From Patescibacteria group bacterium (GTDB lineage Bacteria > Patescibacteriota > Minisyncoccia > Minisyncoccales > Staskawiczbacteraceae), in contig JBBTQL010000004.1 of NCBI GenBank assembly GCA_038065715.1, positions 35,693 through 99,692 on the forward strand: a DNA stretch of 64,000 bases, given 5' to 3'. Shown here piece by piece: positions 8,797 through 64,000 of this stretch. The notes beneath the pieces are model-generated. The model made no database searches. It saw only the letters and a program-made list of their open reading frames with translations, and was not told where the DNA came from. The position numbers were made by a program, and so were the translations under genes. How positions within the stretch are numbered: the first letter of the stretch is position 1; each line of letters opens with the position of its first letter.

Positions 8797-9312
8797 TTGT
8801 GGATTATGAGAAATAAAATTATAACAAAAAGTTTTAAAGAAACTCAAAAAATTGGCGAGAAATTGGCAGATGAAATTTTGAAATTACTGCCGCAAAAAAG
8901 CGCAATAATTTTAGGTTTGAACGGAAACCTTGGGGGAGGCAAAACAACCTTCTTGCAAGGTTTTGCAAAAGGGCTGGGAATTAAAGAAAAAATATTAAGC
9001 CCCACCTTTGTAATTTACAAAAAGTTTATTATTTCACCAATACTTATAAATAAGCGTACGCAGAATTTGGAGTATCGCCAATTTTATCACTTTGATTGCT
9101 ATCGCATAAAAAATTACAAAGACTTTTTGGCGATAGGATTTTCCGCCCAAGGCGGACCAGCCTCGGGCTGGAAAGAAATAATTTCAAACCCAAAAAATAT
9201 TGTGGCAATTGAATGGCCAGAAAAAATTAAAAAGATTTTTCCAAAAACTGCCGTAAAGATAAATTTTAAATTTATCAACGAAAGCGCAAGAGAGTTGACA
9301 ATTAATAAATAA
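8797..9312 (+). CDS. tsaE: tRNA threonylcarbamoyladenosine biosynthesis ATPase TsaE
   Basis: P-loop LGLNGNLGGGKTTFLQGF. SPTF and HFDCYRI motifs of the YjeE/TsaE family. In-frame GC insert at 9143-9171. Confidence 0.75.
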   Translation: MWIMRNKIITKSFKETQKIGEKLADEILKLLPQKSAIILGLNGNLGGGKTTFLQGFAKGLGIKEKILSPTFVIYKKFIISPILINKRTQNLEYRQFYHFDCYRIKNYKDFLAIGFSAQGGPASGWKEIISNPKNIVAIEWPEKIKKIFPKTAVKINFKFINESARELTINK

Positions 9313-11619: not shown

Positions 11620-12513
11620 ATGCCAGAGCTTCCAGAAGTAGAAACAACGGTGCGCGGTTTAAATTCAAAGGTCCTAAAAAGGGCCTTTGTTGATGTGTGG
11701 TCAGATTGGGAAAGAATAATTAAAAAACCAGACAATTTTGAAGTTTTTAAAAAAAATATAAAAGGTAAAAAAATAGAAAAAATATGGCGCCGCGCTAAAA
11801 ATATTATTTTTGATTTATCTGAAGAAAGTTCTCTTTTAATCCACCAAAAAATGACAGGCCATCTTTTGCATGGAACATGGAACATAAAACATGAAACATG
11901 GACGCCGGCTGAAAAAGGTCCATTGAATGACCCGATGAATCGTTTTATTCATTTAATATTTTTTTTAGACAATGGAAAAATGCTCGCTTTGTCTGATGCA
12001 AGAAAATTTGCCAAAGTTGAATTATGGAAAACAGAAGAATTATTAAAAGAATTTGATAATTTAGGGCCAGAACCGCTGGACAAAAATTTTACTTTTGAAA
12101 AGTTTAAAGAAAGATTGTTGCGGCAAAACCCGCCTTCGCCAAGGCTTCGGCGGGGCAAAGTAAAACAGGTTTTAATGAATCCAGAAATAATTGCAGGCAT
12201 TGGAAATATTTATTCTTCAGAGGCATTGTGGCATGCAAAAATACATCCAGAAAAAGAAATCCAAAAATTAAATGGCAAAGAACTAAAAAATATTTATAAT
12301 TCTATTAAAAAAGTTTTAGAGTTGGGGGTGAAATTGGGAGGAGAAAGTTTCTCAGACTACAGAAAACCAGACGGCAGCAAAGGAAATTTTGACACAGAAA
12401 GAAGGGCTTATAAAAGGGAGGGGCAAAAATGCCATAGATGCGGGACAAAAATAAAAAGAATAAAATTTGGCGGCAGAAGCGCATTTTTTTGCCCCCACTG
12501 CCAAAAACTATGA
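11620..12513 (+). CDS. mutM: Formamidopyrimidine-DNA glycosylase (Fpg/MutM)
   Basis: MPELPEVETTVRGL N-terminus with catalytic Pro2/Glu3. C-terminal zinc finger CHRCGTKIKRIKFGGRSAFFCPHCQ. GC insert at 12129-12155. Confidence 0.85.
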   Translation: MPELPEVETTVRGLNSKVLKRAFVDVWSDWERIIKKPDNFEVFKKNIKGKKIEKIWRRAKNIIFDLSEESSLLIHQKMTGHLLHGTWNIKHETWTPAEKGPLNDPMNRFIHLIFFLDNGKMLALSDARKFAKVELWKTEELLKEFDNLGPEPLDKNFTFEKFKERLLRQNPPSPRLRRGKVKQVLMNPEIIAGIGNIYSSEALWHAKIHPEKEIQKLNGKELKNIYNSIKKVLELGVKLGGESFSDYRKPDGSKGNFDTERRAYKREGQKCHRCGTKIKRIKFGGRSAFFCPHCQKL

Positions 12514-19034: not shown

Positions 19035-21083
19035 TTAAGGTGAAGGGTCAATAGCTGGTGGATTATTTATTAAATCTCTAATTTCTGCCGCTCTTTCAAA
19101 GTCTAAATTTTTAACGGCTATTTTCATTTCTTTTTCCAGTAATTTCCTGTCGTGTACTGCCCAAAATTCTTCTGAAACAACTTCTTTTTTTGAAAAACCC
19201 CAATCGCGTATGTCTTTTATTATTGCTTTTGGATTTATTTTATTTTTTTTATTGTAAGCTATTTGTATTTTTCTTCTTCTGTTTATTTCGTCAATGGCTG
19301 ACTGCATAGAAAAAGTAGTTTTGTCTGCATATAAAATAACGCGCCCCTGAAGGTGCCTTGCGGCCCTGCCCATTGTTTGTATTAAGGTTGTTTTATTTCT
19401 TAAAAAACCTTCTTTGTCAGCGTCTAAAATTGCAACCAATGAAACTTCGGGCAGATCAATCCCCTCTCTTAGAAGATTTATTCCAACTAAAACATCGTAT
19501 TTTCCCTCTCTTAAATCTTTTAAAATTTTAGGCCTTTCCATTGTTTTTATTTCAGAATGCAGATATTGGGTTTTGATTCCTCTTTCAATTAAATAATCAG
19601 AAATTTCTTCTGCCAATCTTTTTGTTAAAGTTACAACTAAAACCCTATGTTTTTTAGCAGTTTCTTTTTTAATTTCTTTTATTAAGTCTTTAATTTGATT
19701 CTCGGTTTTTTTGATTTCAATTGATGGTTCTAATAATCCGGTTGGCCTTATAAGCTGTTCAACAATATTTTTGCCTGATTTGTGTTTTTCATAATCGGCT
19801 GGAGTTGCTGAAACATAAATTGTCTGCCCGCCTGCAACGGCTATGCCGTAGGCATTGCGGGCAGGCTTTTGCCTTTTTTCAAATTCTGCAAAAGTTAAAG
19901 GCCTGTTATCAACTGCAGAGGGCAAACGAAATCCAAAATCAATTAAAGTTTCTTTTCTTATTTTATCTTGAACCGACATAGCGCGAATTTGCGGAATTGA
20001 AATATGCGACTCATCAATAAAAATTAACGACCCTTTAGGATTGAAGTAATTAAAATAATCAACCAAAGAAAATGGAGCTTCGCCATGTTTTCTAAATTCC
20101 AAATGCCTTGAATAGTTTTCTATTCCATGGCAAAAGCCAACCTCTTGCATCATCTCTACGTCATAATTTGTTCTTTGCCCTAATCTTTCTGCTTCCAGTA
20201 ATTTTTTTTGTTCATTTAATTTTTTTAGCTGTTCGTGCAATTCTAATTTTATATTTTCTATGGCTATATTTATTTTGTCTTTTGGAGCCACCCAAAAAGT
20301 TGCGGGGAATAGACATAAATTTGAAATTTGAAATTTGAAATTTGAAATTTCGATATTTTTATCGTTAGTTTTTTTTCTGTAAATTTTTTTTATAATATCA
20401 TTGCCAAATTCAATTCTAATAATTTCTTCGCCTGTTACTAAAAATATATCTATAATATCTCCCCTGACACGAAAAGTGGCTGGCTTAAAATCCCAGCCCG
20501 CATTGCTACGCGAAGCGTTGCTGGCGGGAATATCATTTCTTTTATATTGCAAAGCTATAAGATGTGAAATAAATTCTTTGCGTTTTATTTTTTGCCCGGG
20601 GTTTATATCCAAAGAAACATTTTGATAGTTTTCAGGCGAGCCAATATTATAAATGCACGACACAGAAGCCACTACAATTACATCTTTACGCGACAGAACA
20701 TCTTGAACTGCCGAATGCCTTAACCTGTCAATTTCTTCATTTATTTTTGCATCCTTTTCTATATATGTGTCTGATTGCGGGATATAGGCTTCGGGCTGGT
20801 AATAATCATAATAAGAAACAAAGTAATGCACGGCGTTGTTTGGAAAAAATTCTTTAAATTCCTGGTAGAGCTGGGCAGCTAAAGTTTTGTTTGGAGAAAT
20901 AACTAAAGTAGGTTTTTGGATTTTTTGTATAACATTAGCTAATGTGAAAGTTTTGCCCGAGCCAGTAACGCCTAAAAGCACCTGGTCTTTTACGCCATGT
21001 TTGAGATTATTAGTCAGTTCTCTTATTGCTCGTGGCTGATCTCCGGTAGCTGAGAATTTAGATTTTAATTTAAAGTTGGTCAT
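19035..21083 (-). CDS. uvrB: Excinuclease ABC subunit B UvrB
   Basis: Helicase motifs GVTGSGKT and DESH. C-terminal UVR domain. 682 aa. Heptamer array at 20317-20351 is in-frame (NFKFQISN). Confidence 0.9.
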   Translation of the reverse strand: MTNFKLKSKFSATGDQPRAIRELTNNLKHGVKDQVLLGVTGSGKTFTLANVIQKIQKPTLVISPNKTLAAQLYQEFKEFFPNNAVHYFVSYYDYYQPEAYIPQSDTYIEKDAKINEEIDRLRHSAVQDVLSRKDVIVVASVSCIYNIGSPENYQNVSLDINPGQKIKRKEFISHLIALQYKRNDIPASNASRSNAGWDFKPATFRVRGDIIDIFLVTGEEIIRIEFGNDIIKKIYRKKTNDKNIEISNFKFQISNLCLFPATFWVAPKDKINIAIENIKLELHEQLKKLNEQKKLLEAERLGQRTNYDVEMMQEVGFCHGIENYSRHLEFRKHGEAPFSLVDYFNYFNPKGSLIFIDESHISIPQIRAMSVQDKIRKETLIDFGFRLPSAVDNRPLTFAEFEKRQKPARNAYGIAVAGGQTIYVSATPADYEKHKSGKNIVEQLIRPTGLLEPSIEIKKTENQIKDLIKEIKKETAKKHRVLVVTLTKRLAEEISDYLIERGIKTQYLHSEIKTMERPKILKDLREGKYDVLVGINLLREGIDLPEVSLVAILDADKEGFLRNKTTLIQTMGRAARHLQGRVILYADKTTFSMQSAIDEINRRRKIQIAYNKKNKINPKAIIKDIRDWGFSKKEVVSEEFWAVHDRKLLEKEMKIAVKNLDFERAAEIRDLINNPPAIDPSP

Positions 21084-22770: not shown

Positions 22771-24039
22771 GTGTTAGATTGGGTAAATATGAGGATAAAA
22801 GAAGCAGTTAAAAAAATATTAGGCAGAAATTTGTTGGGTTTTTATCATTATGGCATGGCTTTTTTGGGAGCTGTGATTTTTGGTTTTCCATCTAAAAATT
22901 TAACTGTTATAGGGGTTACAGGCACCAGCGGTAAATCAACTACTTCTGATTTTATCACAAGAATTTTAGAAGAACCCTTCGACGGGGCCCAGGGCAGGTC
23001 TGGCAATAAGGTGGCTTCAATTTCAACAATAAGATTTAAAATTGCAGAAAAAGAATGGGAAAATAAATATAAAATGACAATGCCCGGCCGTTTTGTTATT
23101 CAAAAGTTTTTAAGGCAGGCAAAAAAAGCAGGATGCAAATTTGTGGTTTTAGAAGTTACTTCGCAAGGCATTGAACAATATCGCCATAAATTTATAAATT
23201 TTGATACAGCTGTTTTTACTAATTTGTCGCCAGAGCATATTGAAAGCCATGGCAGTTTTGAAAATTACAGAAACGCAAAACTAAAACTATTTCGAGCAAC
23301 AAAAAACATCCATATTATAAATACTGATGACGCAAATTCAAAATATTTTTGGAATATTCCGGCAAAACAAAAAATTGGATTTTCAGCCAAAGATGCGCAA
23401 AACGCTAATTTAAAATTAAATTTAATTGGAGACTTTAATATTTTAAACGCCTTAGCGGCAATTTCTGCGGCAAAGGCATATGGCATTGATTTTAGCATTT
23501 GTAAAAGGGCGCTGGAAAAGGCCAAAGGAATTTCTGGCAGAATGGAAGTGATTCAAAAAGAGCCATTCAAAGTTATTGTTGACTATGCTCATACTCCAGA
23601 ACAACTCGAAAGTGTCTATAAGGCACTTTCTCAAAACCCAAAACCTCAAACTCCAAACCCCAAACTTATTTGTGTGCTTGGAAGTTGCGGCGGGGGAAGG
23701 GATAAATGGAAAAGGACTGTTTTAGGAGAAATTGCAAATAAATATTGCGACAAAATATTTATAACCAATGAAGATCCATATGATGAAAACCCCAACCAGA
23801 TTTTATCTGAAATAAAATCTGGAATTATCAATTCTCAATTTCCAATTTCCAATTTATATGAAATTTTAGACCGTAAAGAGGCAATTAAAACTGCAATAAA
23901 ATTAGCAAAATCAGATGATATTGTTATAATCACTGGCAAGGGTTCAGAATCCTGGATGTGCATAGCAAACGGTAAAAAAATCCCCTGGGACGACAGGCAA
24001 ATCGCTAAAGATGCGTTGGGGCTCCAAACCTTGACATAG
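22771..24039 (+). CDS. Mur ligase family protein (MurE/MurF-like central and C-terminal domains)
   Basis: P-loop VIGVTGTSGKSTT. DYAHTPEQLESVY. N-terminal TM helix. Three in-frame repeat inserts (22975-23005; 23634-23665; 23829-23856). Confidence 0.7.
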   Translation: MLDWVNMRIKEAVKKILGRNLLGFYHYGMAFLGAVIFGFPSKNLTVIGVTGTSGKSTTSDFITRILEEPFDGAQGRSGNKVASISTIRFKIAEKEWENKYKMTMPGRFVIQKFLRQAKKAGCKFVVLEVTSQGIEQYRHKFINFDTAVFTNLSPEHIESHGSFENYRNAKLKLFRATKNIHIINTDDANSKYFWNIPAKQKIGFSAKDAQNANLKLNLIGDFNILNALAAISAAKAYGIDFSICKRALEKAKGISGRMEVIQKEPFKVIVDYAHTPEQLESVYKALSQNPKPQTPNPKLICVLGSCGGGRDKWKRTVLGEIANKYCDKIFITNEDPYDENPNQILSEIKSGIINSQFPISNLYEILDRKEAIKTAIKLAKSDDIVIITGKGSESWMCIANGKKIPWDDRQIAKDALGLQTLT

Positions 24040-24059
24040 ATGCTTTAATATGATATGAT
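24031..24059 (+). promoter_or_regulatory. Promoter TTGACA-N17-TATGAT of the DGR-A target gene, conserved with DGR-B
   Basis: ttgaca 24031-24036, 17-nt spacer, tatgat 24054-24059. The same hexamers and spacing occur at 61998-62025. Confidence 0.45.
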
Positions 24060-24218
24060 TAATAATATAGCTCTTTTTTATTGTTACTTGCGAAATTGGC
24101 AGTTATAGCCAAAAGCTACTGAATTATATCGGTATCTTCTGGCTATGACTGCTATGTCGGTACGTCAAGCAGAAACCAGCCTGTCATAATTGGCGGGCAA
24201 AACAGAAAGGAGATTGTC

Positions 24219-24878
24219 ATGGCTGTGCAAGTCATTGGCGATCTATATGTGGAGTTGGATGGGAAGTTGGCGGAGATTAAGCGGCAAATGAGGCAGCAGG
24301 GAGGCTATCCGTTTGACCCGGAGAAATTAAACAAGTTTCTCCAACTAGCTGTCGAGGGCAGGTTCAACGACAACCGGTGCTGGTGCGAGAAGGAAGGAGT
24401 GATCTACTTTGAGGTCACCTCTGACGGCACGACTGGACCCCAATGGATTGAGCGTCTGGAGAAGAAGGGTATCCAGCTCTCCAAGTGGGCCAAGGACGTC
24501 CTGCTGTCTCCGGACTTCAAGCCGACCAACGGCGTGACCACCGAGATCGCTGTCCTCAAGGGCGCGCTTTTTATGGACAATGATCGCATCACGTCTAAGA
24601 TCCGCGCTGAGGCCGACAAGCGCAAGCTCGTCAAGCCCGAAGCCGAACTCGGTTGCCTTATCCGCGACACGTTCACGGACGAGGAAATCGAAGCCATGGG
24701 TCTTGTGTGGATCGTGGCGTTCCACGAGCCCATCAAGGACTCTGACGGCGATCCGACGTTGCTCGGTGCGCGTCGCCTTGGCGATGGCCGTTGGCTGCGC
24801 GCGTGCTGCGGCCTGCCCGACCGCAGGTGGCTTCGCGACCGTGGCTTTGCCTTCGCCGTCTCGCAAGTATCTTCGTAA
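24219..24878 (+). CDS. DGR variable (target) protein A, with the variable region at its C-terminus
   Basis: SD aaaggagattgtc then ATG. 219 aa, ~57% GC. The C-terminal 42 codons are the VR matched by TR-A. Confidence 0.75.
   Translation: MAVQVIGDLYVELDGKLAEIKRQMRQQGGYPFDPEKLNKFLQLAVEGRFNDNRCWCEKEGVIYFEVTSDGTTGPQWIERLEKKGIQLSKWAKDVLLSPDFKPTNGVTTEIAVLKGALFMDNDRITSKIRAEADKRKLVKPEAELGCLIRDTFTDEEIEAMGLVWIVAFHEPIKDSDGDPTLLGARRLGDGRWLRACCGLPDRRWLRDRGFAFAVSQVSS
24741..24866 (+). repeat. DGR-A variable repeat (VR)
   Basis: 126 nt aligned to TR-A (25208-25333). Mismatches fall essentially only where the TR has A (e.g. TR aatcgcaatgac vs VR cgtcgccttggc). The 3' end ggctttgccttcgccgtctcgcaa is identical (IMH-like). 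Confidence 0.8.
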
Positions 24879-25207
24879 GTCCTTTGGGCTTGAGCCTTTG
24901 CTCTAGCCCTTGGATCCTCTGCCCTTTGCATTTCCTCACGGACTTGCACTGGGCAGATTTTTTTTGCTAAAATATAAATGGTAATAGGTGAATCTTGCGG
25001 GAGATCAAGGTTTCCCGCGGCCGAATCCAGTATTCGTATGCTGAGAGCGTTTGCGATTAAGGTTGCAAACGGAGGGCATACGAATTACTTTCAAAAAAGA
25101 AGATACTTGGCGTGGGAAACTAGGGCATTACGATGCCGAATTCGATACAGCCCTGTGATCGTAAAACTACTTCAAGGGGCAGTGGCATAGATGGTTTCTT
25201 GCGTATT

Positions 25208-25333
25208 TCTGACGGCGATCCGAACTTGCTCAGTGCGAATCGCAATGACGATGGCCATTGGCTGAACGCGTACTACGACAAGCCCGACAACAGGTGGAAT
25301 CGCGACAATGGCTTTGCCTTCGCCGTCTCGCAA
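25208..25333 (+). repeat. DGR-A template repeat (TR)
   Basis: Non-coding copy of the VR, rich in AAC/AAT codons (…AACGCGTACTACGACAAGCCCGACAACAGGTGGAATCGCGACAAT…). Confidence 0.8.
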
Positions 25334-25339
25334 CTCTCT

Positions 25340-25699
25340 TCATTTCTCTCCTTGCTTAGGAGAGTTTTGTTTAATAATTTGTCCCGACCAACCACCGAGC
25401 ATTTTGCCAATTTCATCTAGTTTCAATGATAGAGCAATATATTTTTTGTTATCCAATGATTTTGTTTCCCAAAGAATCATTAAAAATATTTTTAACGTAT
25501 CGACCTTTCTAATTGCTAAACGTACATAGGACAATTTTTCTGATTGCCCAAGAAAACTTGCAGTCACTATTGCCTCTATTGCTTCAACAAAAAGTTTATC
25601 AATTTTTTCACCAAGAGAATATTTATGTATTTTTGGTATAATTAAATAGTGTTGGTACCAAAAAAGATAAGCTTCTTTCAACTTTTGCAAAACAGGCAA
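25340..25699 (-). CDS. avd: DGR accessory variability determinant Avd-A (TTG start)
   Basis: 120 aa. ...KYSLGEKIDKLFVEAIEAIVTASF...KLDEIGKMLGGWSGQIIKQ matches Avd four-helix-bundle proteins (compare Bordetella bAvd ...EVGRILGSWIARVNRK). Starts at TTG 25697-25699 just downstream of the C10 tract, as in copy B. The ORF track's longer start (25834) runs through the homopolymer. Confidence 0.7.
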   Translation of the reverse strand: MPVLQKLKEAYLFWYQHYLIIPKIHKYSLGEKIDKLFVEAIEAIVTASFLGQSEKLSYVRLAIRKVDTLKIFLMILWETKSLDNKKYIALSLKLDEIGKMLGGWSGQIIKQNSPKQGEK

Positions 25700-25705
25700 C
25701 AGTCT

Positions 25706-25715
25706 GGGGGGGGGG
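25706..25715. repeat. Homopolymeric G10 (C10 on the avd strand) in the avd/RT divergent intergenic region
   Basis: agtctGGGGGGGGGGattaaaag. The equivalent position in DGR-B has G7. Confidence 0.9.
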
Positions 25716-25739
25716 ATTAAAAGCTGAGTTATTTTGATT

Positions 25740-26726
25740 ATGAAAATTACTTTGCAACATAAATACGAAGACATCATAAGCGTTGAGAATATTTTGGAAG
25801 CATGGCAAGAGTTTCTTCTCGGCAAAAGAAACAAGCCCGATGTTCAAGAATTTTCTCTCTGTCTGATGAATAATGTTTTTAATTTGCACAACGACTTATC
25901 CAATCATACCTACAAACACGGAGGCTATCAACAATTTAAAATTAACGACCCAAAGCCAAGAACAATCCACAAAGCCAGCGTAAAAGACAGATTATTGCAC
26001 CACGCAGTATATCGTATATTATACCCGTTTTTTGATAAAAAGTTTATTGCAGACTCTTTCTCTTGCAGAAACAACAAAGGCACTCATAAAGCATTAAACA
26101 AATTCAGGGAGTTCAGCTATATTGTTTCCAAAAACAACACAAACACCTGCTGGATTTTAAAATGCGACATAAAAAAGTTTTTTGCCAGCGTTGATCAGCA
26201 GATACTAATTAAAATTTTAGAAAAATATATTTCAGAAAAAGATATTATCAACTTTCTAAAAGAAATAATTTTTGGTTTTAAACCCAATGGTTTGCCTCTC
26301 GGTAATTTGACTTCCCAGTTGTTCGCAAATGTTTATCTGAATGAATTTGACCAGTTTGTAAAACACAAATTGAAAGTAAAATACTATATTAGGTATGCCG
26401 ATGACTTCGTAATTTTATCAGAGAACAAAAATTATTTAAAAAACATAATTCCAGAGCTAAAATATTATTTAAAAAACAATTTAAAACTGGAAATTCATCC
26501 AAATAAAATTTTTATTAAAACATTGAATTCTGGCGTTGATTTTTTAGGCTGGATTAATTTTACAGATCATAGAGTTTTAAGGACAAAAACTAAAAACAGA
26601 ATATTAAAGAGAATAAAAAATAATTCAAGTATTGAAACATTAAATTCTTATTCGGGTTTGTTAAAACATGGAAATATGAACAAAATGATTAAGAAATTAT
26701 TTAAGGAAACGGAGATTGCTTTTTAA
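25740..26726 (+). CDS. DGR reverse transcriptase A
   Basis: RT motifs including GLPLGNLTSQLFANVYLNEFD (DGR-type motif 4) and YIRYADDFV (YxDD). 329 aa. Nearly identical to the partial RT at 63686. Confidence 0.85.
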   Translation: MKITLQHKYEDIISVENILEAWQEFLLGKRNKPDVQEFSLCLMNNVFNLHNDLSNHTYKHGGYQQFKINDPKPRTIHKASVKDRLLHHAVYRILYPFFDKKFIADSFSCRNNKGTHKALNKFREFSYIVSKNNTNTCWILKCDIKKFFASVDQQILIKILEKYISEKDIINFLKEIIFGFKPNGLPLGNLTSQLFANVYLNEFDQFVKHKLKVKYYIRYADDFVILSENKNYLKNIIPELKYYLKNNLKLEIHPNKIFIKTLNSGVDFLGWINFTDHRVLRTKTKNRILKRIKNNSSIETLNSYSGLLKHGNMNKMIKKLFKETEIAF

Positions 26727-26734
26727 TCTATTTT

Positions 26735-27031
26735 GTGTTAGAATTAAAAATCATGAAAAATTCAAAATCTGTTAAGAAATTTATTAGGACGCAAAAGGCG
26801 CAGATTAGGCGCCAGTTTTTTGATGTGAAAAAACAAGAAGCTGAAATAGCAGAGTTATATAAAAAAGTGGCAGGAACTGTGGTGGCGAAATCCTTCGACG
26901 CGGCTCAGGACGATGCTTCTACATTGAAAGCAGAAGTTAAAAAACCTGCCCGCAATGCTTCGCATAGCGATGCAGGCGGGGAGAAATCGAGAAAAGAAAT
27001 AAAGAAACAAAAGCTAAAAGTTAAATCTTAA
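26735..27031 (+). CDS. Small basic hypothetical protein carrying GC inserts
   Basis: 98 aa, K/R-rich. CCTTCGAC-family insert at 26891-26912 encodes KSFDAAQDD. Confidence 0.4.
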   Translation: MLELKIMKNSKSVKKFIRTQKAQIRRQFFDVKKQEAEIAELYKKVAGTVVAKSFDAAQDDASTLKAEVKKPARNASHSDAGGEKSRKEIKKQKLKVKS

Positions 27032-29087: not shown

Positions 29088-30386
29088 ATGAAGTTTGCAG
29101 CTGATTTTCATATACACTCAAAATATTCAAGAGCCACTTCCCCTTCAATGGACTTGGAAAATTTAGATAAATGGGCAAAAATTAAAGGCATTAAGGTTTT
29201 AGGAACAGGAGATTTTACTCATCCTGGTTGGCTTAAGAATTTAAAAGAAAAATTGAGCCCCGCTGAGCGGGGTCTTTTTTGCGCCCAAGGCGCATCCGCC
29301 TTGGGCGCAAAGCTTAATGATAATTTTGCTACTAGGTTTTTACTTACAGCTGAGATTAGCTGTATATATTCTAAGGCTGGTAAAGTTAGAAAAATCCATA
29401 TTATAATTTTTGCCCCCTCATTTGAGGCAGTAGAAAAAATTAATTTAAAACTGGGCCAAATTGGAAATTTAAAAGCAGATGGCAGGCCTATTTTAGGCCT
29501 TGATGCAAAAGAATTGGCTAAAATTATTTTTGACGCAGATGAAAATTGCATGGTTGCGCCGGCTCATATGTGGACGCCATGGTTTTCTGTTTTCGGTTCA
29601 AAATCAGGCTTTAATTCAATGGAAGAGTGTTTTGAAGAATATTCAAAATATATTTACGCTGGCGAAACTGGTTTGTCTTCTGACCCGGCAATGAACTGGC
29701 GGCTTTCACAATTAGATAAAATTACCTTGATTTCTAATAGCGACGCCCATTCCCCCAGTAAAATCGGTAGAGAAGCGAATTTTTTTGATACAGAAATGAG
29801 TTATATTGGGATAATAGACATAATAAAAAACCCCATTAGAAAGCCTTCGGCTTCTAACGGGGCAAGGTTTTTGTATACAATAGAATTTTTTCCAGAAGAA
29901 GGAAAGTATCATTATGACGGCCATAGGTCGTGCGACATAAGATTATCTCCGCAAGAATCAAAAAGATATAACAATATTTGCCCAAAATGCCAAAAACCTC
30001 TTGTTATTGGAGTTTTAAACAGAGTTGAGGAGCTGGCTGATAGGCCTGAAGGATTCCAGCCAGAAAATGCTGTACCTTTTAAAAGCTTAATTCCATTAGA
30101 AGAAATAATCGCTGAATCTATCGGCGTTACGACTGCGTCAAAACAAGTCGCTAAATTTTATAATAATTTAATAAAAAATATAGGCAGCGAGTTTAAAATT
30201 TTGTTAGAAGCAGATAAAGAAGAAATTAAAAAAATAAGTTTGCCTGCCATTGCAGAAGGTATTATAAAAGTTAGGGAAGGGAAAATTTATATTGAGCCGG
30301 GTTACGATGGAGTCTATGGAAAAATAAAAATTTTTGCAAAACCAGAGGAAAAAAAATTTTTATTTTCACAAAAAACATTATTTTAA
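29088..30386 (+). CDS. EndoQ-like PHP-domain endonuclease (TIGR00375 family)
   Basis: MKFAADFHIHSKYSRATSPSMDLENLDKWAKIKGIKVLGTGDFTHPGW closely matches the EndoQ N-terminus. C-terminal zinc finger CPKCQKP. 432 aa. Confidence 0.6.
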   Translation: MKFAADFHIHSKYSRATSPSMDLENLDKWAKIKGIKVLGTGDFTHPGWLKNLKEKLSPAERGLFCAQGASALGAKLNDNFATRFLLTAEISCIYSKAGKVRKIHIIIFAPSFEAVEKINLKLGQIGNLKADGRPILGLDAKELAKIIFDADENCMVAPAHMWTPWFSVFGSKSGFNSMEECFEEYSKYIYAGETGLSSDPAMNWRLSQLDKITLISNSDAHSPSKIGREANFFDTEMSYIGIIDIIKNPIRKPSASNGARFLYTIEFFPEEGKYHYDGHRSCDIRLSPQESKRYNNICPKCQKPLVIGVLNRVEELADRPEGFQPENAVPFKSLIPLEEIIAESIGVTTASKQVAKFYNNLIKNIGSEFKILLEADKEEIKKISLPAIAEGIIKVREGKIYIEPGYDGVYGKIKIFAKPEEKKFLFSQKTLF

Positions 30387-32697: not shown

Positions 32698-34527
32698 ATG
32701 AAGAACAAGGAAATTGCTAAAATATTTTATGAAATAGCGAAATTTTTAGAAATAGAAAGAGTGGCTTTTAAGCCCTATGCTTATGAAAGGGCTGGTAATT
32801 CCTTAGAAGCATTGAAAGAAGATGTGGGCGATATTTATAGAAAAGGCGGGGCAAAGGCTTTGCAGGAAATTTCAGGAGTCGGCAAAAATATTGCAGGGCA
32901 TATTGAAGAGTATTTAAAAAATGGAAAGGTAAAAATCTACGAACAGCTTAAAAAGAAATTGCCCCTTAAAATAGATGAGTTGATTAAAGTAGAAGGTTTG
33001 GGCCCAAGAAAAATAAAAATTCTTTATCAAAAATTAGGCGTTAAAAATTTGAAAGATTTGGAAAAGATGGCTAAGGCGCATAAAATAGCCCCGCTTTTCG
33101 GTTTTGGAGAAAAAACAGAAAATAATATTTTAGAAGGCATTGAATTTTTAAAAAGAAGCAAAGGCCGGTCTCGTTTGGGAGACATAATGCCAATAGTAGA
33201 AGAAATTTTTGAAAATTTAAAAAATTTAAAAGAGGTTGAAAAAATCAGTTTAGCTGGCTCTTTAAGAAGAAGAAAAGAAACTATTGGAGATGTTGATATT
33301 TTAGTGGTTTCCCGCCCAGCAGGGCGAGGCTCGCCTGGTGAGGCGGCTAATAAAGTAATGGATTTTTTTGTTTCTCAAGAGGGCGTAGAAAAAGTATGGG
33401 GCAAAGGAGGAACAAAAGCATCGGTTCATATGAAATATGGATTTGATATGGATTTAAGAATTGTTCCCGAAAAAAGTTATGGCTCTGCTTTGCAATACTT
33501 TACCGGGTCAAAAGACCACAATATTGTTACAAGAAAAATTGCCATAGAAAAAGGCCTAAAATTAAGCGAGTACGGAGTTTTTAAAGGAAAAAAACAGATT
33601 GCCGGTAAAACAGAAGAAGATGTTTATAAAGCAATTGGTTTGCCATTTATAGAACCAGAATTAAGAGAAAACGAAGGCGAAATTGAGGCGGCTCTTCGAC
33701 AAGCTCAGGGTAAACTTCCGGGATTGCCAAAAATAGTTGAGTTAAAAGATATAAGGGGGGACTTACATTGCCATTCAAAACCCGATGGAGTCGCCCATTT
33801 GAATGTCGGAGAAAAATCGATTGAAGAAATGGCTAAAGTGGCAATGGCTATGGGTTACGAATATATTGGAATTTCTGATCATACAAAATTTTTAAAAATT
33901 GATGATGGTTTAGACGAGAAACAATTATTAAAACAAAATGAAGCAATAAAAAAAATAAATACCCGCCTCCGCCAACCTGCGCTTCGCCAAAGGCTTCGGC
34001 AAGGCGAGGGCTTCGGCGGGCAAGAAAAATTTCGCATACTTCACGGATGCGAGGCAAATATTCTACCGGACGGTTCAATAGATATTAAAGACGAAGTTTT
34101 GGCTCAATTAGATTATGTTATAGCTGGCGTTCACAATGCTTTAAAACAAGAAAAACTAAAAATGACAGAAAGGTTAATAAGAGCAATGAAAAATCCGAAT
34201 GTTGATATTATTTCGCATCCAACGGGCAGATTAATAGGCAGCAGAGACGAATATCAAATTGATTTTGATAAAATTTTAGAAATAGCAAAAGAAACCGGAA
34301 CAATTTTGGAAATTAATTCGTCTCCTTACAGATTAGATTTAAAAGACTTATATGTCAGAAGAGCAAAAAATGAAGGCGTGAAAATGATTATAAATACCGA
34401 CAGCCACCAAAAAGAGCAATTAAATCTTATGGAATATGGAGTTTCGCAAGCCAGAAGAGGTTGGGCGGAGAGAGAGGATATTATAAACACAAATTCATTA
34501 GACGGATTATTAAAATATTTTAAATGA
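32698..34527 (+). CDS. DNA polymerase X family protein with a C-terminal PHP domain
   Basis: N-terminal HhH/Pol-beta-like region (GVGKNIAGHIEEYL, GDVDIL). PHP motifs DLHCHS and ISDH. Two in-frame GC inserts (33311-33346; 33962-34021). Confidence 0.85.
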   Translation: MKNKEIAKIFYEIAKFLEIERVAFKPYAYERAGNSLEALKEDVGDIYRKGGAKALQEISGVGKNIAGHIEEYLKNGKVKIYEQLKKKLPLKIDELIKVEGLGPRKIKILYQKLGVKNLKDLEKMAKAHKIAPLFGFGEKTENNILEGIEFLKRSKGRSRLGDIMPIVEEIFENLKNLKEVEKISLAGSLRRRKETIGDVDILVVSRPAGRGSPGEAANKVMDFFVSQEGVEKVWGKGGTKASVHMKYGFDMDLRIVPEKSYGSALQYFTGSKDHNIVTRKIAIEKGLKLSEYGVFKGKKQIAGKTEEDVYKAIGLPFIEPELRENEGEIEAALRQAQGKLPGLPKIVELKDIRGDLHCHSKPDGVAHLNVGEKSIEEMAKVAMAMGYEYIGISDHTKFLKIDDGLDEKQLLKQNEAIKKINTRLRQPALRQRLRQGEGFGGQEKFRILHGCEANILPDGSIDIKDEVLAQLDYVIAGVHNALKQEKLKMTERLIRAMKNPNVDIISHPTGRLIGSRDEYQIDFDKILEIAKETGTILEINSSPYRLDLKDLYVRRAKNEGVKMIINTDSHQKEQLNLMEYGVSQARRGWAEREDIINTNSLDGLLKYFK

Positions 34528-38037: not shown

Positions 38038-38054
38038 TTGTATTTATTATTTTA

Positions 38055-38403
38055 GTGGAAGCGCCGGGGTCGAACCCGGGTCCAGAAATTTTTTAAAAAT
38101 AAATCTACAAATTTATCTTGCTTTGTTGTTTGGATATTAAATAAGAAGCAAGAAAAATGTTTAATATCCTAATTCTCGTAAATCTCGACAGTTCCCCGAG
38201 AAATAAAACTGCCTATCCTGAAAATATAACACCCTCGGTCCATTTATCAGGAGTCAATGGCGAGGATGCAGCATTAAGCTAAAGCTAGTGCTGGTTGCCT
38301 ATTAAATAAATTAGCAATTATGTTTTTTCTATAAGTTTAACCAGGTTATAGAAAACTGGATTTGCATATTTTTAATGAAACATCTGTCAAAACTTACGCT
38401 CCC
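38055..38403 (-). ncRNA. ssrA: tmRNA (SsrA)
   Basis: 3' end GGACCCGGGTTCGACCCCGGCGCTTCCA (T-arm + acceptor) at 38056-38083 on the minus strand. 5' GGGAGCG at 38397-38403 pairs with the 3' CGCUUCC to form a 7-bp acceptor stem. Candidate tag reading frame gct aat tta ttt aat agg caa cca gca cta gct tta gct taa gives (A)NLFNRQPALALA* (plus 38274-38315). Lies immediately downstream of smpB. Confidence 0.65.
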
Positions 38404-59467: not shown

Positions 59468-62014
59468 ATGAATATGGCAAAATATAATCCTCAAAAAATT
59501 GAGAAGAAATGGCAAGAGGCTTGGTATAAATCAAGCATTTTTAAAGCTAAAAACGGGTCTAAAAATAAGAAATTTTACCTTTTAGTGGAGTTTCCTTATC
59601 CTTCGGGAGACGGGCTTCATGTCGGCCATTGCCGAAGCTATACTGCCTTAGATATTATTGCCAGAAAAAAAAGAATGCAGGGATTTAATGTTTTATTCCC
59701 AATGGGCTGGGACGCTTTTGGATTGCCAACTGAAAATTATGCCATAAAAAAGGGAGTACACCCGTCTGTTGTGACAAAAAAGAATACAGATAACTTTAGG
59801 CGGCAGATGAAAAGTTTGGGGCTTTCTTTTGACTGGAGCCGAGAAATAAATACCACAGACCCAAAATATTATAAATGGACGCAGTGGATTTTTTTGCAGT
59901 TATTTAAAAATAACTTGGCTTATAAAGATAAAATTGCAATCAACTGGTGCCCTAAAGATAAAATTGGATTGGCAAATGAAGAAGTGATAAATGGCAAATG
60001 CGAAAGATGCGGCGCAAAAGTTGAAAAAAGAGATAAAGAGCAATGGATGATAAAAATTACAAAATATGCCGACAGATTAATTGAAGATTTAAATTTAGTT
60101 GATTATTTAGAAAAAATAAAAATACAGCAGAAAGATTGGATAGGCGAGTCACATGGAGCGTTGATAAAATTTTCGTTAGAAGGAAGCGAAGAATTCATAG
60201 AAGTTTTTACAACCAGAATAGACACAATATTTTCTGGCACGTTTTTAATTTTATCTCCAGGACACAATTTTATAGATAAATATAAAAATAAAATTGAAAA
60301 CATTGATGAAGTTTTAAAATATAGAGAAACCGCAAAAAATACTTCTGATATAGATAGAACTAATCAAGATAAAGATATTACAGGAGTGGAATTAAAAGGA
60401 ATTACAGTAAAAAATCCTGCCACAAATGAAGAAATGCCAGTTTGGACAGCTGATTTTGTTTTAGAGCAATACGGAACAGGAGTCGTTTTTGCTGATGCCC
60501 ATGATAAAAGAGATTTTAAAATGGCAAAAAAATATGGGATACCTTTGCGAACTTCAATAAAACCAGAAAATGAACTATCGGCGCAAAAAGCAAAAAATTT
60601 GGAAGAATGTTTTGAGGGCGAAGGCGCTCTTTATAATTCTATGCATTTTGACGGCTTAACTTCTTCTGAAGCCCGACCTAAAATAATTTCTTGGTTAAGG
60701 GAAAAAGGATATGCGGAAAACAAAATAAGCTATAAGCTTCGAGATTGGGTTTTTTCGCGCCAGCATTATTGGGGCGAGCCAATACCAATGATTTTTTGCG
60801 TAAAATGCGGTTGGCAGGCTGTTTTAGAAAAAAATCTGCCCGTTGAATTGCCTAAGGTAAAAAAATATCAGCCAACAGATACAGGCGAATCTCCTCTTTC
60901 TGCTATTGAAAAATGGGTAAATGTAAAATGTCCAAAATGCAAAGGACCGGCAAAAAGAGAAACAGACACAATGCCTAATTGGGCAGGTTCAAACTGGTAT
61001 TACTTGGCATATACTATGCCAAAAATTTCAAATTTCAAATTTCAAATTTCAAATTCTGCGAAAGAATTTTCGCAGTGGATGCCAGTTGACTGGTATAATG
61101 GCGGAATGGAGCACACAACTTTGCATTTATTGTATTCAAGATTTATTTTTAAATTTTTATGGGATATTGGAGCTGTTCCAAAAATAATTGGGGCAGAACC
61201 ATATAAAAAAAGAACTTCGCATGGAATGATTTTAGGCGAAGGGGGAATTAAAATGTCAAAGTCAAAGGGAAATGTAATAAATCCAGATTCAGTTGTGAAA
61301 CAATATGGAGCCGACACCTTAAGAGTTTACGAAATGTTTATCGGGCCTTTTGAGCAAATGATTCCTTGGGATATAAAGGGGGTTGTTGGTTCGCGCAGGT
61401 TTTTAGAAAAAATTTACAACTTAGTTTTGAAGAAGGCAATTCCGGCAAAAATCCCGACGGTCTCGCCGTCGAGGACCCGCGACGAAGTCGGGGCAGAAGA
61501 AAATTTTAAAAAACTTTTGCATAAAACAATAAAAAAGGTTGGTGACGATATTGAGGCAATGAAATTTAACACAGCAGTGAGCTCTTTAATGGAATTTGTA
61601 AATGCATGGAGCATTGCTGAAAATAGTTTAGATAAACCAGCCTCCGATAAAGGCTACGGCTTGGCGAAGAAAGATTTGCAAGAATTTTTAAAGATTTTGT
61701 CGCCTTTTGCCCCGCATTTGTCAGAAGAGCTTTGGCAAAGAGCTGGATTTAAAGGTTTGTGCTGCGCTCAAAAATGGCCTAAGTATGACGAAAAATTAAT
61801 TGAAGAAAAAAACATATTGCTTATTGTGCAAATTAACGGTAAAGTTAGAGATAAAATAGAAGTTAACGCAGGCATTACTCAAAAACAAGCTGAAGAAATA
61901 GTTTTAAAATTAGAAAAAATTAAAAACCGTATAACTAATATTAAAGAAGTGGAAAAAGTTGTTTTTGTGCCAGGTAAGTTAATAAATTTTGTGACTATTG
62001 ACAAGGATAAGTAA
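59468..62014 (+). CDS. leuS: Leucyl-tRNA synthetase
   Basis: HVGHCRSYTALDIIARKKRMQGFNVLFPMGWDAFGLP (HIGH region). KMSKSKGN. 848 aa. Heptamer array + hairpin at 61023-61077 and palindrome at 61453-61494 are in-frame. Confidence 0.9.
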   Translation: MNMAKYNPQKIEKKWQEAWYKSSIFKAKNGSKNKKFYLLVEFPYPSGDGLHVGHCRSYTALDIIARKKRMQGFNVLFPMGWDAFGLPTENYAIKKGVHPSVVTKKNTDNFRRQMKSLGLSFDWSREINTTDPKYYKWTQWIFLQLFKNNLAYKDKIAINWCPKDKIGLANEEVINGKCERCGAKVEKRDKEQWMIKITKYADRLIEDLNLVDYLEKIKIQQKDWIGESHGALIKFSLEGSEEFIEVFTTRIDTIFSGTFLILSPGHNFIDKYKNKIENIDEVLKYRETAKNTSDIDRTNQDKDITGVELKGITVKNPATNEEMPVWTADFVLEQYGTGVVFADAHDKRDFKMAKKYGIPLRTSIKPENELSAQKAKNLEECFEGEGALYNSMHFDGLTSSEARPKIISWLREKGYAENKISYKLRDWVFSRQHYWGEPIPMIFCVKCGWQAVLEKNLPVELPKVKKYQPTDTGESPLSAIEKWVNVKCPKCKGPAKRETDTMPNWAGSNWYYLAYTMPKISNFKFQISNSAKEFSQWMPVDWYNGGMEHTTLHLLYSRFIFKFLWDIGAVPKIIGAEPYKKRTSHGMILGEGGIKMSKSKGNVINPDSVVKQYGADTLRVYEMFIGPFEQMIPWDIKGVVGSRRFLEKIYNLVLKKAIPAKIPTVSPSRTRDEVGAEENFKKLLHKTIKKVGDDIEAMKFNTAVSSLMEFVNAWSIAENSLDKPASDKGYGLAKKDLQEFLKILSPFAPHLSEELWQRAGFKGLCCAQKWPKYDEKLIEEKNILLIVQINGKVRDKIEVNAGITQKQAEEIVLKLEKIKNRITNIKEVEKVVFVPGKLINFVTIDKDK

Positions 62015-62025
62015 ATATGCTATGA
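61998..62025 (+). promoter_or_regulatory. Promoter TTGACA-N16-TATGAT of the DGR-B target gene
   Basis: ttgaca 61998-62003 (inside the leuS 3' end) and tatgat 62020-62025. Matches the DGR-A promoter. Confidence 0.45.
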
Positions 62026-62201
62026 TTAATAATACAGCTCTTTTTAAGTGAAAATACTTGCAAAAACAGCGGTTATAGCCAAAAGCGACCGAAGGTCGTC
62101 CTGAGCAGAGCCGAAGGACAACAAATCGGTATTTTCTGGCTATGACTGCTATGGTAGTAGTCAAGCGAAATGGTGAAACCCTAAAGAAAGGAAAAAGCAC
62201 C

Positions 62202-62822
62202 ATGTCGTACGACAAGCAGACAGCCGAGTTCATCGCCACTGTGGTGCAGAACATCCCCAAAATGTCAGGCGATGTTATGCAGGGTTGGATTGGGAATCCA
62301 AAAGCGCTACAGAAGCTCCTCTTGGGTCTATGCCCTTCTGTCAATGAGCCCAAGGAAGTCTCGTTGCTCCGCAAGCTCGCCAGCGTTCAGGTGGAGGGCG
62401 TTGCAAGATTCGTCGTTGACGACGATACCCTGCAGGCGGCCAACATCGGCTGGACTGGCGACAACTTCAAAAAGTTTTTCGCCAAGAAGGTTGAGGAGGA
62501 TGTTCCCGCCTGCGCTATCGCTGTTCACCGGCTGGAACGCGCGTCTTCGGATGCGCCCATTCTCACCGAACTCGGTGACCGCGCCGAAATCAGCCTCGCG
62601 CACCTGTTCGAGCTGATCAAAAAGCAGTCCAAGGGCGAAACTGGCCAGTTGTTGGTTAATGGTTATGCGAATGTCGCATATGTCCGTGGAACCGATGGCA
62701 ACCTCTGGGCTGTGCTTGCGGCCTGGCGCTCTTACTGCGGTTGCTGGGGTGTCGAGGCTGACTCGGTTGAGGATCCGGACGGGTGGCGCGGTAGCCGCCG
62801 GATTCTCTCCCGCGATTCTTGA
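62202..62822 (+). CDS. DGR variable (target) protein B, with the variable region at the extreme C-terminus
   Basis: SD aaaggaaaaagcacc then ATG at 62202. ~57% GC. Last 36 codons = VR-B. The ORF track's upstream ATG (62142) lies in the conserved leader. Confidence 0.7.
   Translation: MSYDKQTAEFIATVVQNIPKMSGDVMQGWIGNPKALQKLLLGLCPSVNEPKEVSLLRKLASVQVEGVARFVVDDDTLQAANIGWTGDNFKKFFAKKVEEDVPACAIAVHRLERASSDAPILTELGDRAEISLAHLFELIKKQSKGETGQLLVNGYANVAYVRGTDGNLWAVLAAWRSYCGCWGVEADSVEDPDGWRGSRRILSRDS
62704..62813 (+). repeat. DGR-B variable repeat (VR)
   Basis: 110 nt aligned to TR-B (63165-63274). Substitutions essentially only at TR adenines (TR tac ggt tac tgg aat ... aac vs VR tgc ggt tgc tgg ggt ... 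gac). Shared 3' attctctcccgc. Confidence 0.8.
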
Positions 62823-62867: not shown

Positions 62868-62916
62868 TGGCTCTCTGAAACTTTGAAAAAAGTAGTAAGA
62901 GAGCCTTTTTGTTTTG
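62868..62916 (+). terminator. Intrinsic terminator after target B (ggctctct/agagagcc + T-run)
   Basis: 8-bp stem, 22-nt loop, ttttt gtttt. Confidence 0.5.
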
Positions 62917-63164
62917 TGAAAAAGTAATGTAGAATAAATCTAAGGAATGCTAAGTATGAAGGCTACGGCTTTCATAAAGCGCTCCGAAAATGTATATTGC
63001 AGAATTATTGCGGATACGTCTTCAATAAGAGTTGATATACATATTTCAAAAAAAGAAAAGAATCGGTGTGGCGTGCTGGCGGACTTTGAGGTCCCAAATA
63101 AGATACAGCCCCTAGAGTATTCAAAGGGCAGTGGCATTGATGGCGCGTTGCATATTAATTAGGG

Positions 63165-63274
63165 TCTGGGCTGTGAATGCGAACTGGAACTCTAACTACG
63201 GTTACTGGAATGTCGAGGCTAACTCGGTTGAGAATCCGAACAGGTGGAACGATAGCAACCAGATTCTCTCCCGC
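63165..63274 (+). repeat. DGR-B template repeat (TR)
   Basis: AAC/AAT-rich (…AACTGGAACTCTAACTACGGTTACTGGAATGTCGAGGCTAACTCG…). Encodes LWAVNANWNSNYGYWNVEANSVENPNRWNDSNQ in the VR frame. Confidence 0.8.
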
Positions 63275-63642
63275 TACTGTTTTCTTTCTTCCGCTTTTAT
63301 CGCGGAAGTTTTGCTTATTATTCCTTTTTTCCAGCCACCGATTATCTTACCAATGCCTTCTATCTCAGCGCCAAGCGAGATATATTGTTTATTAGAAACG
63401 AGTTTTGTTTCCCATAAAAGCTGAAAGAAAAAACGCAACGAATCAATTTTGTCCGATGTCGCTTCAAGCAAAACAAGTTTTTTATTTATTGGCGTATACG
63501 TAGCTTTTCTTAATAACTCAAGAAGATCTAAAAATAAAATATCTACTTTAGTCCCGATTCCGAACCGCGCGATTCGTTCAATATTGCGATGCACTTCCAT
63601 CCACTGTTTATATATCAATTTGGATTTTTGCAAAACTGGCAA
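63274..63642 (-). CDS. avd: DGR accessory variability determinant Avd-B (TTG start)
   Basis: 122 aa. ...LGAEIEGIGKIIGGWKKGIISK C-terminus. Co-linear with Avd-A. Stop codon overlaps the last 2 nt of TR-B. TTG start 6 nt from the C7 tract. Confidence 0.7.
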   Translation of the reverse strand: MPVLQKSKLIYKQWMEVHRNIERIARFGIGTKVDILFLDLLELLRKATYTPINKKLVLLEATSDKIDSLRFFFQLLWETKLVSNKQYISLGAEIEGIGKIIGGWKKGIISKTSAIKAEERKQ

Positions 63643-63655: not shown

Positions 63656-63685
63656 ATTAGAAGAATAACTATTTATATTTTGATT

Positions 63686-64000
63686 ATGAAAATTGTTTTG
63701 AAACATAAATATGAATATTTAATTAGCGTTAATAATTTATTGGAAGCGTGGACAGAATTTATCAAGGGGAAGCGCAACAAAAGCGATGTTCAGATTTTTT
63801 CATTTCATTTAATGGATAATATTTTACAACTTCATTGTGATTTAAAAAATGGCACATATAAGCATGGAGGCTATCAACAATTTAAAATCAACGACCCAAA
63901 ACCAAGGATAATTCACAAAGCCAGCGTAAAAGACAGATTATTGCACCACGCAGTATATCGTATATTATACCCGTTTTTTGATAAAAAGTTCATTGCAGAC
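63686..64000 (+). CDS. DGR reverse transcriptase B (5' part; continues beyond the window)
   Basis: MKIVLKHKYEYLISVNNLLEAWTEFIKGKRNK...GGYQQFKINDPKPRIIHKASVKDRLLHHAVYRILYPFFDKKFIAD. The last ~130 nt are ~95% identical at the DNA level to RT-A 25920-26050. Confidence 0.85.
   Translation, partial: MKIVLKHKYEYLISVNNLLEAWTEFIKGKRNKSDVQIFSFHLMDNILQLHCDLKNGTYKHGGYQQFKINDPKPRIIHKASVKDRLLHHAVYRILYPFFDKKFIAD

Follow-up and report, generated by a model that had tools for sequence, protein, structure and literature searches.

A covarying hairpin in the 5' leaders of diversity-generating retroelement target genes of CPR/Patescibacteria

The 64,000-nucleotide stretch analyzed here (hereafter, the window; contig JBBTQL010000004.1 of assembly GCA_038065715.1, positions 35,693 to 99,692 of the forward strand) comes from a Patescibacteria group bacterium and contains two complete, separate diversity-generating retroelement (DGR) cassettes, A and B. 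The two share an identical layout: a promoter, a leader, a target gene encoding about 200 amino acids with a C-terminal variable repeat (VR), a spacer of about 330 nt, the template repeat (TR), a gene for a bAvd-like accessory protein on the opposite strand and the reverse transcriptase (RT) gene (Table 1). Here we describe a long hairpin, HP1, located in the leaders of both target genes. A first-pass annotation had drawn attention to these leaders, attributing both targets to one DGR; instead, TR, bAvd and RT are present separately for each target, and TR-adenine positions account for 21 of the 24 VR/TR mismatches in cassette A and likewise in cassette B. Paralogy between the cassettes covers the RT/Avd region (78%), the 37 nt preceding the TR and the leader, whereas the target bodies show no match by blastn and the two target proteins are, as annotated, unrelated (BLASTP E = 5.2). 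Beyond targets A and B, there are no further target-like genes in the window, and the two HP1 copies, both at targets, are the only ones in the 64 kb.

Table 1. Features of the two DGR cassettes and related sequence elements (window coordinates, except for the second leader motif, which is given by locus)
Feature	Position	Strand	Remarks
Promoter A, TTGACA-N17-TATGAT, TG-extended	24031..24059	+	11/12 matches; -35 box overlaps stop codon of Mur-ligase-like open reading frame
5' flanking motifs of copy A, AGCUCUUUUUUA and UACUUGCGAAA	24069..24095	+	fixed spacing before HP1 in most homologues
HP1 copy A	24099..24152	+	13-bp stem, A.C mismatch, A-U, A-U, G-C (G.U in most homologues), weak position, 6-bp apical stem, 6-nt loop
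3' flanking motif yA..yGG..GUCaAGC	24153..24170	+	conserved in type-1 sub-type
SD-proximal hairpin of copy A, GCCUGUCA/UGGCGGGC (24179-24198), Shine-Dalgarno sequence (SD) GAAAGGAG (24205-24212) and ATG (24219)	24179..24221	+	target-sub-family-specific
DGR target A, 219 aa	24219..24878	+	no Pfam match; VR 24741-24874
Terminator-like stem CTGCCC...GGGCAG, then T8, 3' of target A	24919..24965	+	read from sequence; loop exceeds the scan tool's definition
TR A	25208..25341	+	terminator-like hairpin next, at 25346-25364
bAvd-like accessory protein A	25340..25705	-	PF22296, E 1.4e-11
DGR reverse transcriptase A	25734..26726	+	RVT_1, E 1.2e-24
Promoter B, TTGACA-N17-TATGAT, TG-extended	61998..62026	+	11/12 matches; -35 box within leuS 3' end
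5' flanking motifs of copy B, CAGCUCUUUUUA and UACUUGCAAAAA	62036..62066	+	from the alignment
HP1 copy B	62069..62149	+	stems as in copy A; one A-U to G.U change
GC-rich 27-nt insertion, apex of HP1 copy B	62093..62119	+	net insertion relative to A; stems intact; forms own small hairpins
Hairpin of copy B, AUGGUG...CACCAU	62170..62203	+	SD in loop; ends at start codon; target-sub-family-specific
DGR target B, 206 aa	62202..62822	+	no Pfam match; VR 62704-62820
Terminator-like stem GGCTCTC...GAGAGCC, then TTTTTGTTTT, 3' of target B	62869..62915	+	read from sequence
TR B	63165..63281	+	terminator-like hairpin next, at 63288-63308
bAvd-like accessory protein B	63274..63642	-	PF22296, E 2.9e-9
DGR reverse transcriptase B, N-terminal part	63680..64000	+	cut by window end; sequence match to cassette A
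Second leader motif in sister loci	L009:3010-3098, L014:4469-4557, L016:3262-3350, L030:4348-4436, L050:4426-4514, L055:4381-4469, L057:2116-2204, L072:926-1014, L076:735-823		
Palindromic islands	9139-9181, 12126-12164, 19824-19870, 22969-23019, 29257-29302, 33959-34030, 53952-53992, 58695-58744, 61450-61504, 62093-62119		

The leaders (24031-24218 in A and 61998-62202 in B) align over the promoter and HP1, with blastn matches between 24031-24123 and 61998-62093 (78%, E 6e-17) and between 24128-24175 and 62125-62170 (87.5%, E 7e-10). In addition, the window contains the 20-mer TTCTGGCTATGACTGCTATG at these two sites and nowhere else (0 expected from shuffles), so that the high similarity asserted by the first-pass annotation is upheld. 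The folding z-scores of the leaders are -6.6 (A) and -3.4 (B). Several details of the annotation had to be revised. The shared promoter is real, with a spacer of 17 nt in both copies rather than 16 or 17; the conserved hairpin is larger than described, comprising a 13-bp stem, an irregular AAAG/YUUU center and a 6-bp stem; and the GC-rich insertion in the loop of copy B, which does leave the stem intact, is not a perfect 34-nt palindrome at 62085-62118, the net insertion being 27 nt. Of the approximately 170 nt of leader thought to be conserved, a hairpin of about 54 nt and short flanking motifs are widely kept, and the remainder is specific to target sub-families. The copy-B insertion has a homologue in another locus (L155), whereas L001, L040, L147 and others carry unrelated apical insertions; the HP1 apex is a recurrent landing site for palindromes (copy B of the window, winB, along with L001, L040, L147 and L155).

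To follow HP1 among relatives, loci were selected blindly to the leader, with the RT protein as the query, yielding 80 CPR (candidate phyla radiation)/Patescibacteria loci with RTs 54-74% identical; the 51 loci with at least 2 kb of sequence upstream of the RT serve as the denominator. HP1 is present in 16 of these 51; it always shares the strand of the RT and precedes the VR-bearing gene, at 1.4-1.7 kb upstream of the RT. Searching by sequence alone, with the leader as the query of blastn and nhmmer, gave ten instances, which constitute the seed set; two covariance models, R1 and R2, enlarged the set to 16, and the six model-found members introduce a slight alignment bias from which the seeds are free. 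Among the seed sequences, 14 of the 23 predicted pairs are maintained through changes on both sides. In the full set of 16, 92.6% of the cells are paired, compared to 33-48% in slid controls, and compensatory changes occur in 16 of the 23 pairs, across 82 cells; none of 500 shuffles reaches any of the observed measures. Homologues thus carry the compensatory changes that the first-pass annotation had singled out as decisive for its proposal of a conserved, structured non-coding leader RNA linked to DGR targets, and this part of the annotation stands.

Given the paralogy of the two cassettes in their RT/Avd segments (78%), the similarity of the leaders might be a functionless residue of recent cassette duplication. 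Yet over the target bodies and the target-TR spacers the cassettes no longer show recognizable similarity, whereas their leaders are still 78-87% identical, and the hairpin is retained, with its compensatory changes, across loci whose RTs share 57-74% identity. The covariation refutes this explanation, and we consider it extremely improbable.

Across 91 unique hairpins, the 13-bp lower stem is 93-99% paired, with a weaker basal closing pair (86%) and no outward extension. The center consists of an A.C mismatch (67%), two A-U pairs, a G.U pair (82%) and a weakly paired position, and is followed by a 6-bp apical stem that covaries freely and includes a conserved U.G pair (71%). The loop is 3-7 nt long, variable and AU-rich, with no conserved sequence, and apical insertions of 27-130 nt are found in about 16% of the hairpins. 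Altogether, HP1 forms a coaxial helix of about 24 positions (13 bp, an irregular center of 4-5 positions and 6 bp). Two sequence sub-types, GCAGUCAUAGCC...GGCUAUGACUGC and UUUGCCACAGCAG...CUGCUGUGGCAAA, have the AAAG/YUUU center in common. Applied to 67 leaders (-55 to +40), RNAalifold recovers HP1 only, that is, no further common helix, and an outer helix formed by the flanking motifs was rejected on the same grounds.

The structure is strand-specific. The folding energy is -29.9 kcal/mol for the sense strand versus -24.6 kcal/mol for the antisense strand, the sense strand is the more stable one in 60 of 75 (p 8e-11) and in 13 of 16 (p 0.0016) hairpins, the G.U and U.G conservation is on the sense strand, and the covariance model scores are higher on the target strand in all cases. 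Because the sense strand is more stable by about 5 kcal/mol, the structure appears to have been selected on the mRNA strand. It is highly probable that HP1 is a selected sense-strand structure of the 5' untranslated region (UTR), specific to the DGR targets of CPR bacteria.

These observations bear on the possibility that HP1 acts in DNA, either as a single-stranded hairpin or cruciform involved in recombination or mobility of the cassette (as in attC sites, IS200/IS605 elements or miniature inverted-repeat transposable elements, MITEs) or as an operator. Such a role would be in line with the occurrence of the cassettes in unrelated genomic contexts, at the stop codons of housekeeping genes, with the compositionally foreign target open reading frames (ORFs), with the tandem hairpin-target units in L103, L111 and L131, and with the apparently swapped arms in L053. 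However, apart from the G.U pairs being conserved on the coding strand, HP1 is invariably found between the promoter and the SD in the orientation of the gene, a placement restricted to DGR targets that differs from that of attC sites or dispersed palindromes; the attC box sequences are lacking; no recombinase or transposase accompanies the hairpin; the inner stem covaries without sequence conservation, unlike the half-sites of an operator; and HP1 is not scattered over the genome in the manner of a dispersed repeat, unlike the GC-rich mini-palindromes. A DNA-level function is thus quite improbable. The hairpin of L053 (~4400-4475) is a single case, a long hairpin before a DGR target in which the arms, CCCAGUUUUCUUUUUGCC and GGCAGAAAGAAGGCUGGG, resemble a type-2 HP1 with the arms swapped; it also carries a GC-palindrome in the apex.

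The link between HP1 and DGR target genes was assessed in a DGR-blind scan with a hairpin-only pattern, which identified at least 120 metagenome stretches; the 80 of these that were analyzed all score at least 39 bits with R1, and the pattern has no match in viral contigs. The Hainich and Rifle groundwater sites account for many of the matches. Among the matches listed, 69 of the 76 evaluable hairpins (91%) lie upstream of a validated DGR target or of a homologue of one. The former group numbers 15, each hairpin preceding a gene whose 3' end is matched, with adenine-specific mismatches, by a TR further downstream; the latter group numbers 54. Overall, about a hundred such genes in these ultra-small bacteria are preceded by HP1, which is found before unrelated target families, irrespective of the N-terminal domain. 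For about 17 of the hairpin-led homologues, 1.8-12 kb of downstream sequence contains neither TR nor RT, which implies that HP1 accompanies the target gene rather than the RT; the genes in question resemble remote or orphan targets. Thus, the further leader copies that the first-pass annotation suggested seeking before other genes do exist in other genomes, many of them before target homologues without a nearby RT or TR.

Four contigs contain two HP1 copies each, L103 (5-48 and 1317-1360), L111 (5749-5819 and 9120-9190), L131 (899-970 and 2113-2182) and L148 (4870-4939 and 5050-5118), arranged as tandem promoter-HP1-target units; in L111, the second unit is downstream of the RT. A few HP1 copies precede ORFs that are not recognizable as DGR targets (L085, 993-1037; L143; L157) and that may be decayed or non-diversified paralogues; the 168-aa ORF of L085 has a target-like N-terminus and a different C-terminus.

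The position of HP1 within the transcription unit is also regular. An upstream sigma-70-type promoter with at least 10 of 12 matches was detected for 65 of 75 hairpins, the end of the -10 box being a median of 47 nt upstream, which is an indirect indication that the region is transcribed. Downstream of HP1, at 32-104 nt, come the SD and the ATG of an ORF encoding about 200 aa. The hairpin ends 589 nt (A) or 555 nt (B) upstream of the VR start and is not located at the VR 3' end. In this respect, it differs from the known cis elements of DGRs, namely, the initiation of mutagenic homing (IMH) sequence, the hairpin/cruciform just downstream of the VR and the TR-spacer RNA, which act in cDNA synthesis or integration and are located at the VR 3' end or next to the TR. 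Like HP1, these elements involve nucleic-acid hairpins specifically tied to DGR target genes; unlike them, HP1 resides in the mRNA leader, upstream of the VR, and the majority of loci in the same RT clade do not have it.

A direct role in diversification could nevertheless be envisaged, in which the Avd-RT ribonucleoprotein, or else an accessory factor, binds HP1 in the nascent RNA or the mRNA; HP1 would thereby mark true targets, remote ones among them, and couple their transcription to retrohoming, the VR being about 0.65 kb downstream. The near-exclusive association of HP1 with DGR targets and their homologues, with any N-terminal domain and whether RT-adjacent or remote, its use by both independent DGRs of the window and the fact that DGR ribonucleoproteins recognize structured RNA near the TR are all compatible with such a handle. 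On the other side, HP1 is distant from the VR and the IMH, the sites of known DGR target recognition, no copy of it is found near a TR, complementarity between the leader and the TR-containing RNA is not in excess (z -0.18 and +0.87), and the 69% of same-RT-clade loci that lack HP1 display adenine-specific VR/TR differences all the same. We consider this role unlikely, and the same holds for the broader version in which HP1 is an RNA tag that is read by the Avd-RT complex or a partner and defines a diversification regulon, coupling transcription to retrohoming or to co-ordinated expression.

The prevalence of loci without HP1 further implies that it is not essential to this DGR clade; it is one of several interchangeable leader modules. 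In at least 9 sister loci, a second structured leader motif, GCCUGGGG-hairpin-GUGAGGGG, is located just before the SD. Its consensus, GGC..GCCUGGGG-[variable hairpin]-GUGAGGGGU..GCC, describes three stacked helices with purine-rich internal loops, and 5 of its 13 pairs covary in 9 sequences. This motif has no Rfam match and is absent from the window. With its conserved internal loops, it looks more like a ligand- or protein-binding RNA than HP1 does. The existence of a second leader type in the sister loci suggests that these target genes generally have structured 5' UTRs.

Around HP1, several single-stranded motifs recur, rGCwCwUUUwcA, UACUUGCGAAA and yGGyrGUCaAGC, whereas the hairpins nearer the SD differ between target sub-families. 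The SD hairpin of the copy-B type, UGGYG...CRCC-AUG, shows GUG/CAC versus GCG/CGC covariation in L077, L081, L109 and L131; it is also listed for L145, with the A-rich SD region in the loop and the hairpin abutting the start codon. Two other roles for leader segments were tried and rejected. The 5' motif GCUCUUUU of copy A can pair with the SD, but across 63 leaders the pairing between the 5' segment and the SD is weak (mean z -0.41, with 22% below -1.64, versus -0.12 for the coding-region control), so that anti-SD pairing is not a general mechanism. The AUG in the 3' arm, a potential start of an upstream ORF or of an N-terminal extension (MTAM...), follows from the pairing with AGUCAU; homologues have ACG, AUA or GUG in its place, no SD precedes it, and it shares the reading frame of the target only occasionally.

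The first-pass annotation had proposed that the leader was a riboswitch-like RNA, or else a target of a small RNA or of CsrA; the structural data disfavor the riboswitch and the CsrA site. The location in the 5' UTR and the conserved irregular center of the helix might suit a ligand sensor. However, HP1 is a single, nearly continuous helix with no junction or conserved unpaired nucleotides that could form a pocket, the conserved positions being within the helix, and the apical loop is variable and takes the long insertions described above. An expression platform is not apparent either: a T-run follows the HP1 stem in 0 of 90 cases, which also removes an intrinsic terminator or attenuator, no outer or alternative helix was found, and sequestration of the SD is not general. 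A riboswitch is therefore very unlikely. In the case of a small-RNA target or the site of a CsrA-like translational regulator, the flanks UACUUGCGAAA and GGyrGUCaAGC would serve as contacts and HP1 as a scaffold, and indeed these motifs are conserved in sequence, stand at a fixed distance from HP1 and show no mutual pairing. Against this, GGA, the motif expected of a CsrA/RsmA leader, is present in or at the HP1 loop in just 3 of 77 hairpins, the leader shows no complementarity to the TR-RNA, a complementary RNA was not identified, and the strongest conservation and all of the covariation fall within the helix; we regard such a regulator as rather unlikely. More generally, the confinement of the conserved nucleotides (A.C, G.U) to the helix, together with the variable, insertion-tolerant loop, argues against a riboswitch, a CsrA site and an attenuator alike and favors a helix that is recognized by a protein.

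Rfam 15, including RT-1 to RT-19, yields no match to the leader even at E<=10. HP1 appears to be a previously undescribed leader RNA motif, of the gene-family-specific 5'-UTR kind; no description of a target-gene leader RNA was found in the part of the DGR literature that was covered, and an earlier mention is possible. The closest precedents are the RT-1 to RT-19 and DUF3800 motifs, orphan RNAs found by comparative genomics (Weinberg et al. 2017, PMC5737381), which, like HP1, are defined by covariation, are strictly tied to one kind of gene and were found by the same logic. One of these, RT-10, is a DGR-linked motif located in the stretch that separates the TR from the RT and is thought to serve reverse transcription (PMC5737381). 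Unlike RT-10, HP1 is located in the 5' UTR of the target gene, at remote targets too.

We favor a model in which HP1 would function as a sense-strand hairpin in the 5' UTR of DGR target mRNAs of CPR/Patescibacteria, each expressed from its own sigma-70-type promoter. HP1 would start about 25-55 nt into the transcript and would be followed by the sub-family-specific hairpins and the SD, with a terminator-like stem closing the unit. A trans-acting protein would recognize HP1 in cis, as a helix, and would set the processing, stability or translation of the mRNA; one such factor would co-regulate all targets of a genome, whether RT-adjacent or remote. The combination of a cis helix with a trans-acting protein is the best fit to a two-turn irregular helix that is conserved while its loop is dispensable and that is common to all targets of a genome, whatever protein they encode. 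We infer that HP1 controls target expression and is bound by a protein, and estimate the probability that it is a protein-read regulatory helix at about 0.55.

The leading candidate for the reader would be a double-strand-specific factor such as RNase III. Stem-loops in 5' leaders that are processed by RNase III include those of the Escherichia coli rncO and pnp leaders, phage T7 R1.1 and the lambda N leader. HP1 resembles these sites in being a coaxial 5'-UTR hairpin of about two turns, separate from the SD, with a central irregularity and an unimportant loop, and it contains the coaxial double-stranded RNA of about 20 bp or more that is characteristic of such sites. In contrast to them, HP1 has a strongly conserved stem sequence and conserved single-stranded flanks and is linked to one gene family, not to the regulon of the RNase itself. 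By this analogy, RNase III itself would be a possible, if doubtful, reader.

Several observations weigh against the protein-read helix or limit what it might do. HP1 leaves the SD uncovered and, given the weakly enriched SD pairing, no direct translational mechanism is visible. The hairpin is not at the 5' end, so that it would not be a simple 5'-terminal stabilizer unless the RNA is processed. The high conservation of the stem sequence and of the single-stranded flanks goes beyond what recognition by RNase III alone would call for. Related loci without HP1 have other leaders, some with a short hairpin instead. Finally, the stems behind the targets that would close the transcription unit have long loops and were identified by eye.

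A terminator-like stem is present after each target and after each TR. Because a stem and a T-run follow the target and a terminator-like hairpin follows the TR, each target mRNA is most likely monocistronic, with the leader being part of that mRNA, and the TR would be carried by its own RNA of about 400 nt. In the regions of the putative TR RNAs (24966-25366 and 62920-63310), a -10-like box is found after the terminator of the target; the 37 nt just 5' of the TR that are conserved between the cassettes (25171-25207 versus 63120-63156) are 81% identical; and, in cassette A, the 5' domain contains a nested long hairpin, CGTATGC..CGTTTGC..GCAAACG..GCATACG, at about 25035-25082. The terminator-like hairpin directly after the TR is common to the TR and the convergent bAvd gene. 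There is an overlap of about 100 nt between the RT start (25734) and the longest minus-strand ORF containing bAvd (25340-25834); the bAvd core that matches Pfam begins later, at about 25705, so that the Avd and RT 5' ends are divergent and closely abutting.

In both cassettes, the upstream housekeeping gene overlaps the -35 hexamer with its last codons or stop codon (24031-24039, Mur-ligase-like ORF; 61998-62014, leuS), and the homology between the cassettes starts exactly at the -35 hexamer and the end of the upstream gene, which hints that promoter-leader-target modules have been inserted at gene ends. Upstream of the VR, the GC content of the target ORFs (24219-24740 and 62202-62703) is 0.55-0.56 versus 0.34 in the window; for 15 loci, the mean is 0.54 versus 0.415 for the genomes, and the A content of the coding strand is also lower, whereas the leaders are AT-rich, as is the host. 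The high GC content of the target ORFs could stem from a foreign origin or from selection that disfavors adenines.

Dozens of short GC-rich palindromic islands are present in this genome of 34% GC, some of them within intact ORFs (22969-23019, Mur-ligase-like; 61450-61504, leuS). The copy-B insertion has no second full copy in the window, the only match being one of 11 nt at 26903-26913, and a GC-rich stretch lies at about 26891-26913 within the ORF 26735-27031. Both this insertion and the islands are reminiscent of the Rickettsia palindromic elements and of elements similar to repetitive extragenic palindromes (REP) and MITEs, short GC-rich palindromes that are scattered over an AT-rich reduced genome, also within ORFs. 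HP1 itself, unlike the Rickettsia elements, is not dispersed and is found only before DGR targets. The sole Rfam match in the window at the gathering threshold is a transfer-messenger RNA gene (38053-38403, minus strand; RF00023, 112 bits).

DGRs are unusually common in CPR bacteria; to our knowledge, almost nothing is known about the control of the expression of DGR-diversified genes, least of all in these bacteria. HP1 points to a common post-transcriptional layer of such control across unrelated and remote targets and provides concrete material for experiments. The model R2 or the hairpin pattern can also serve as a practical marker for remote or orphan DGR targets that are missed by RT-centered pipelines.

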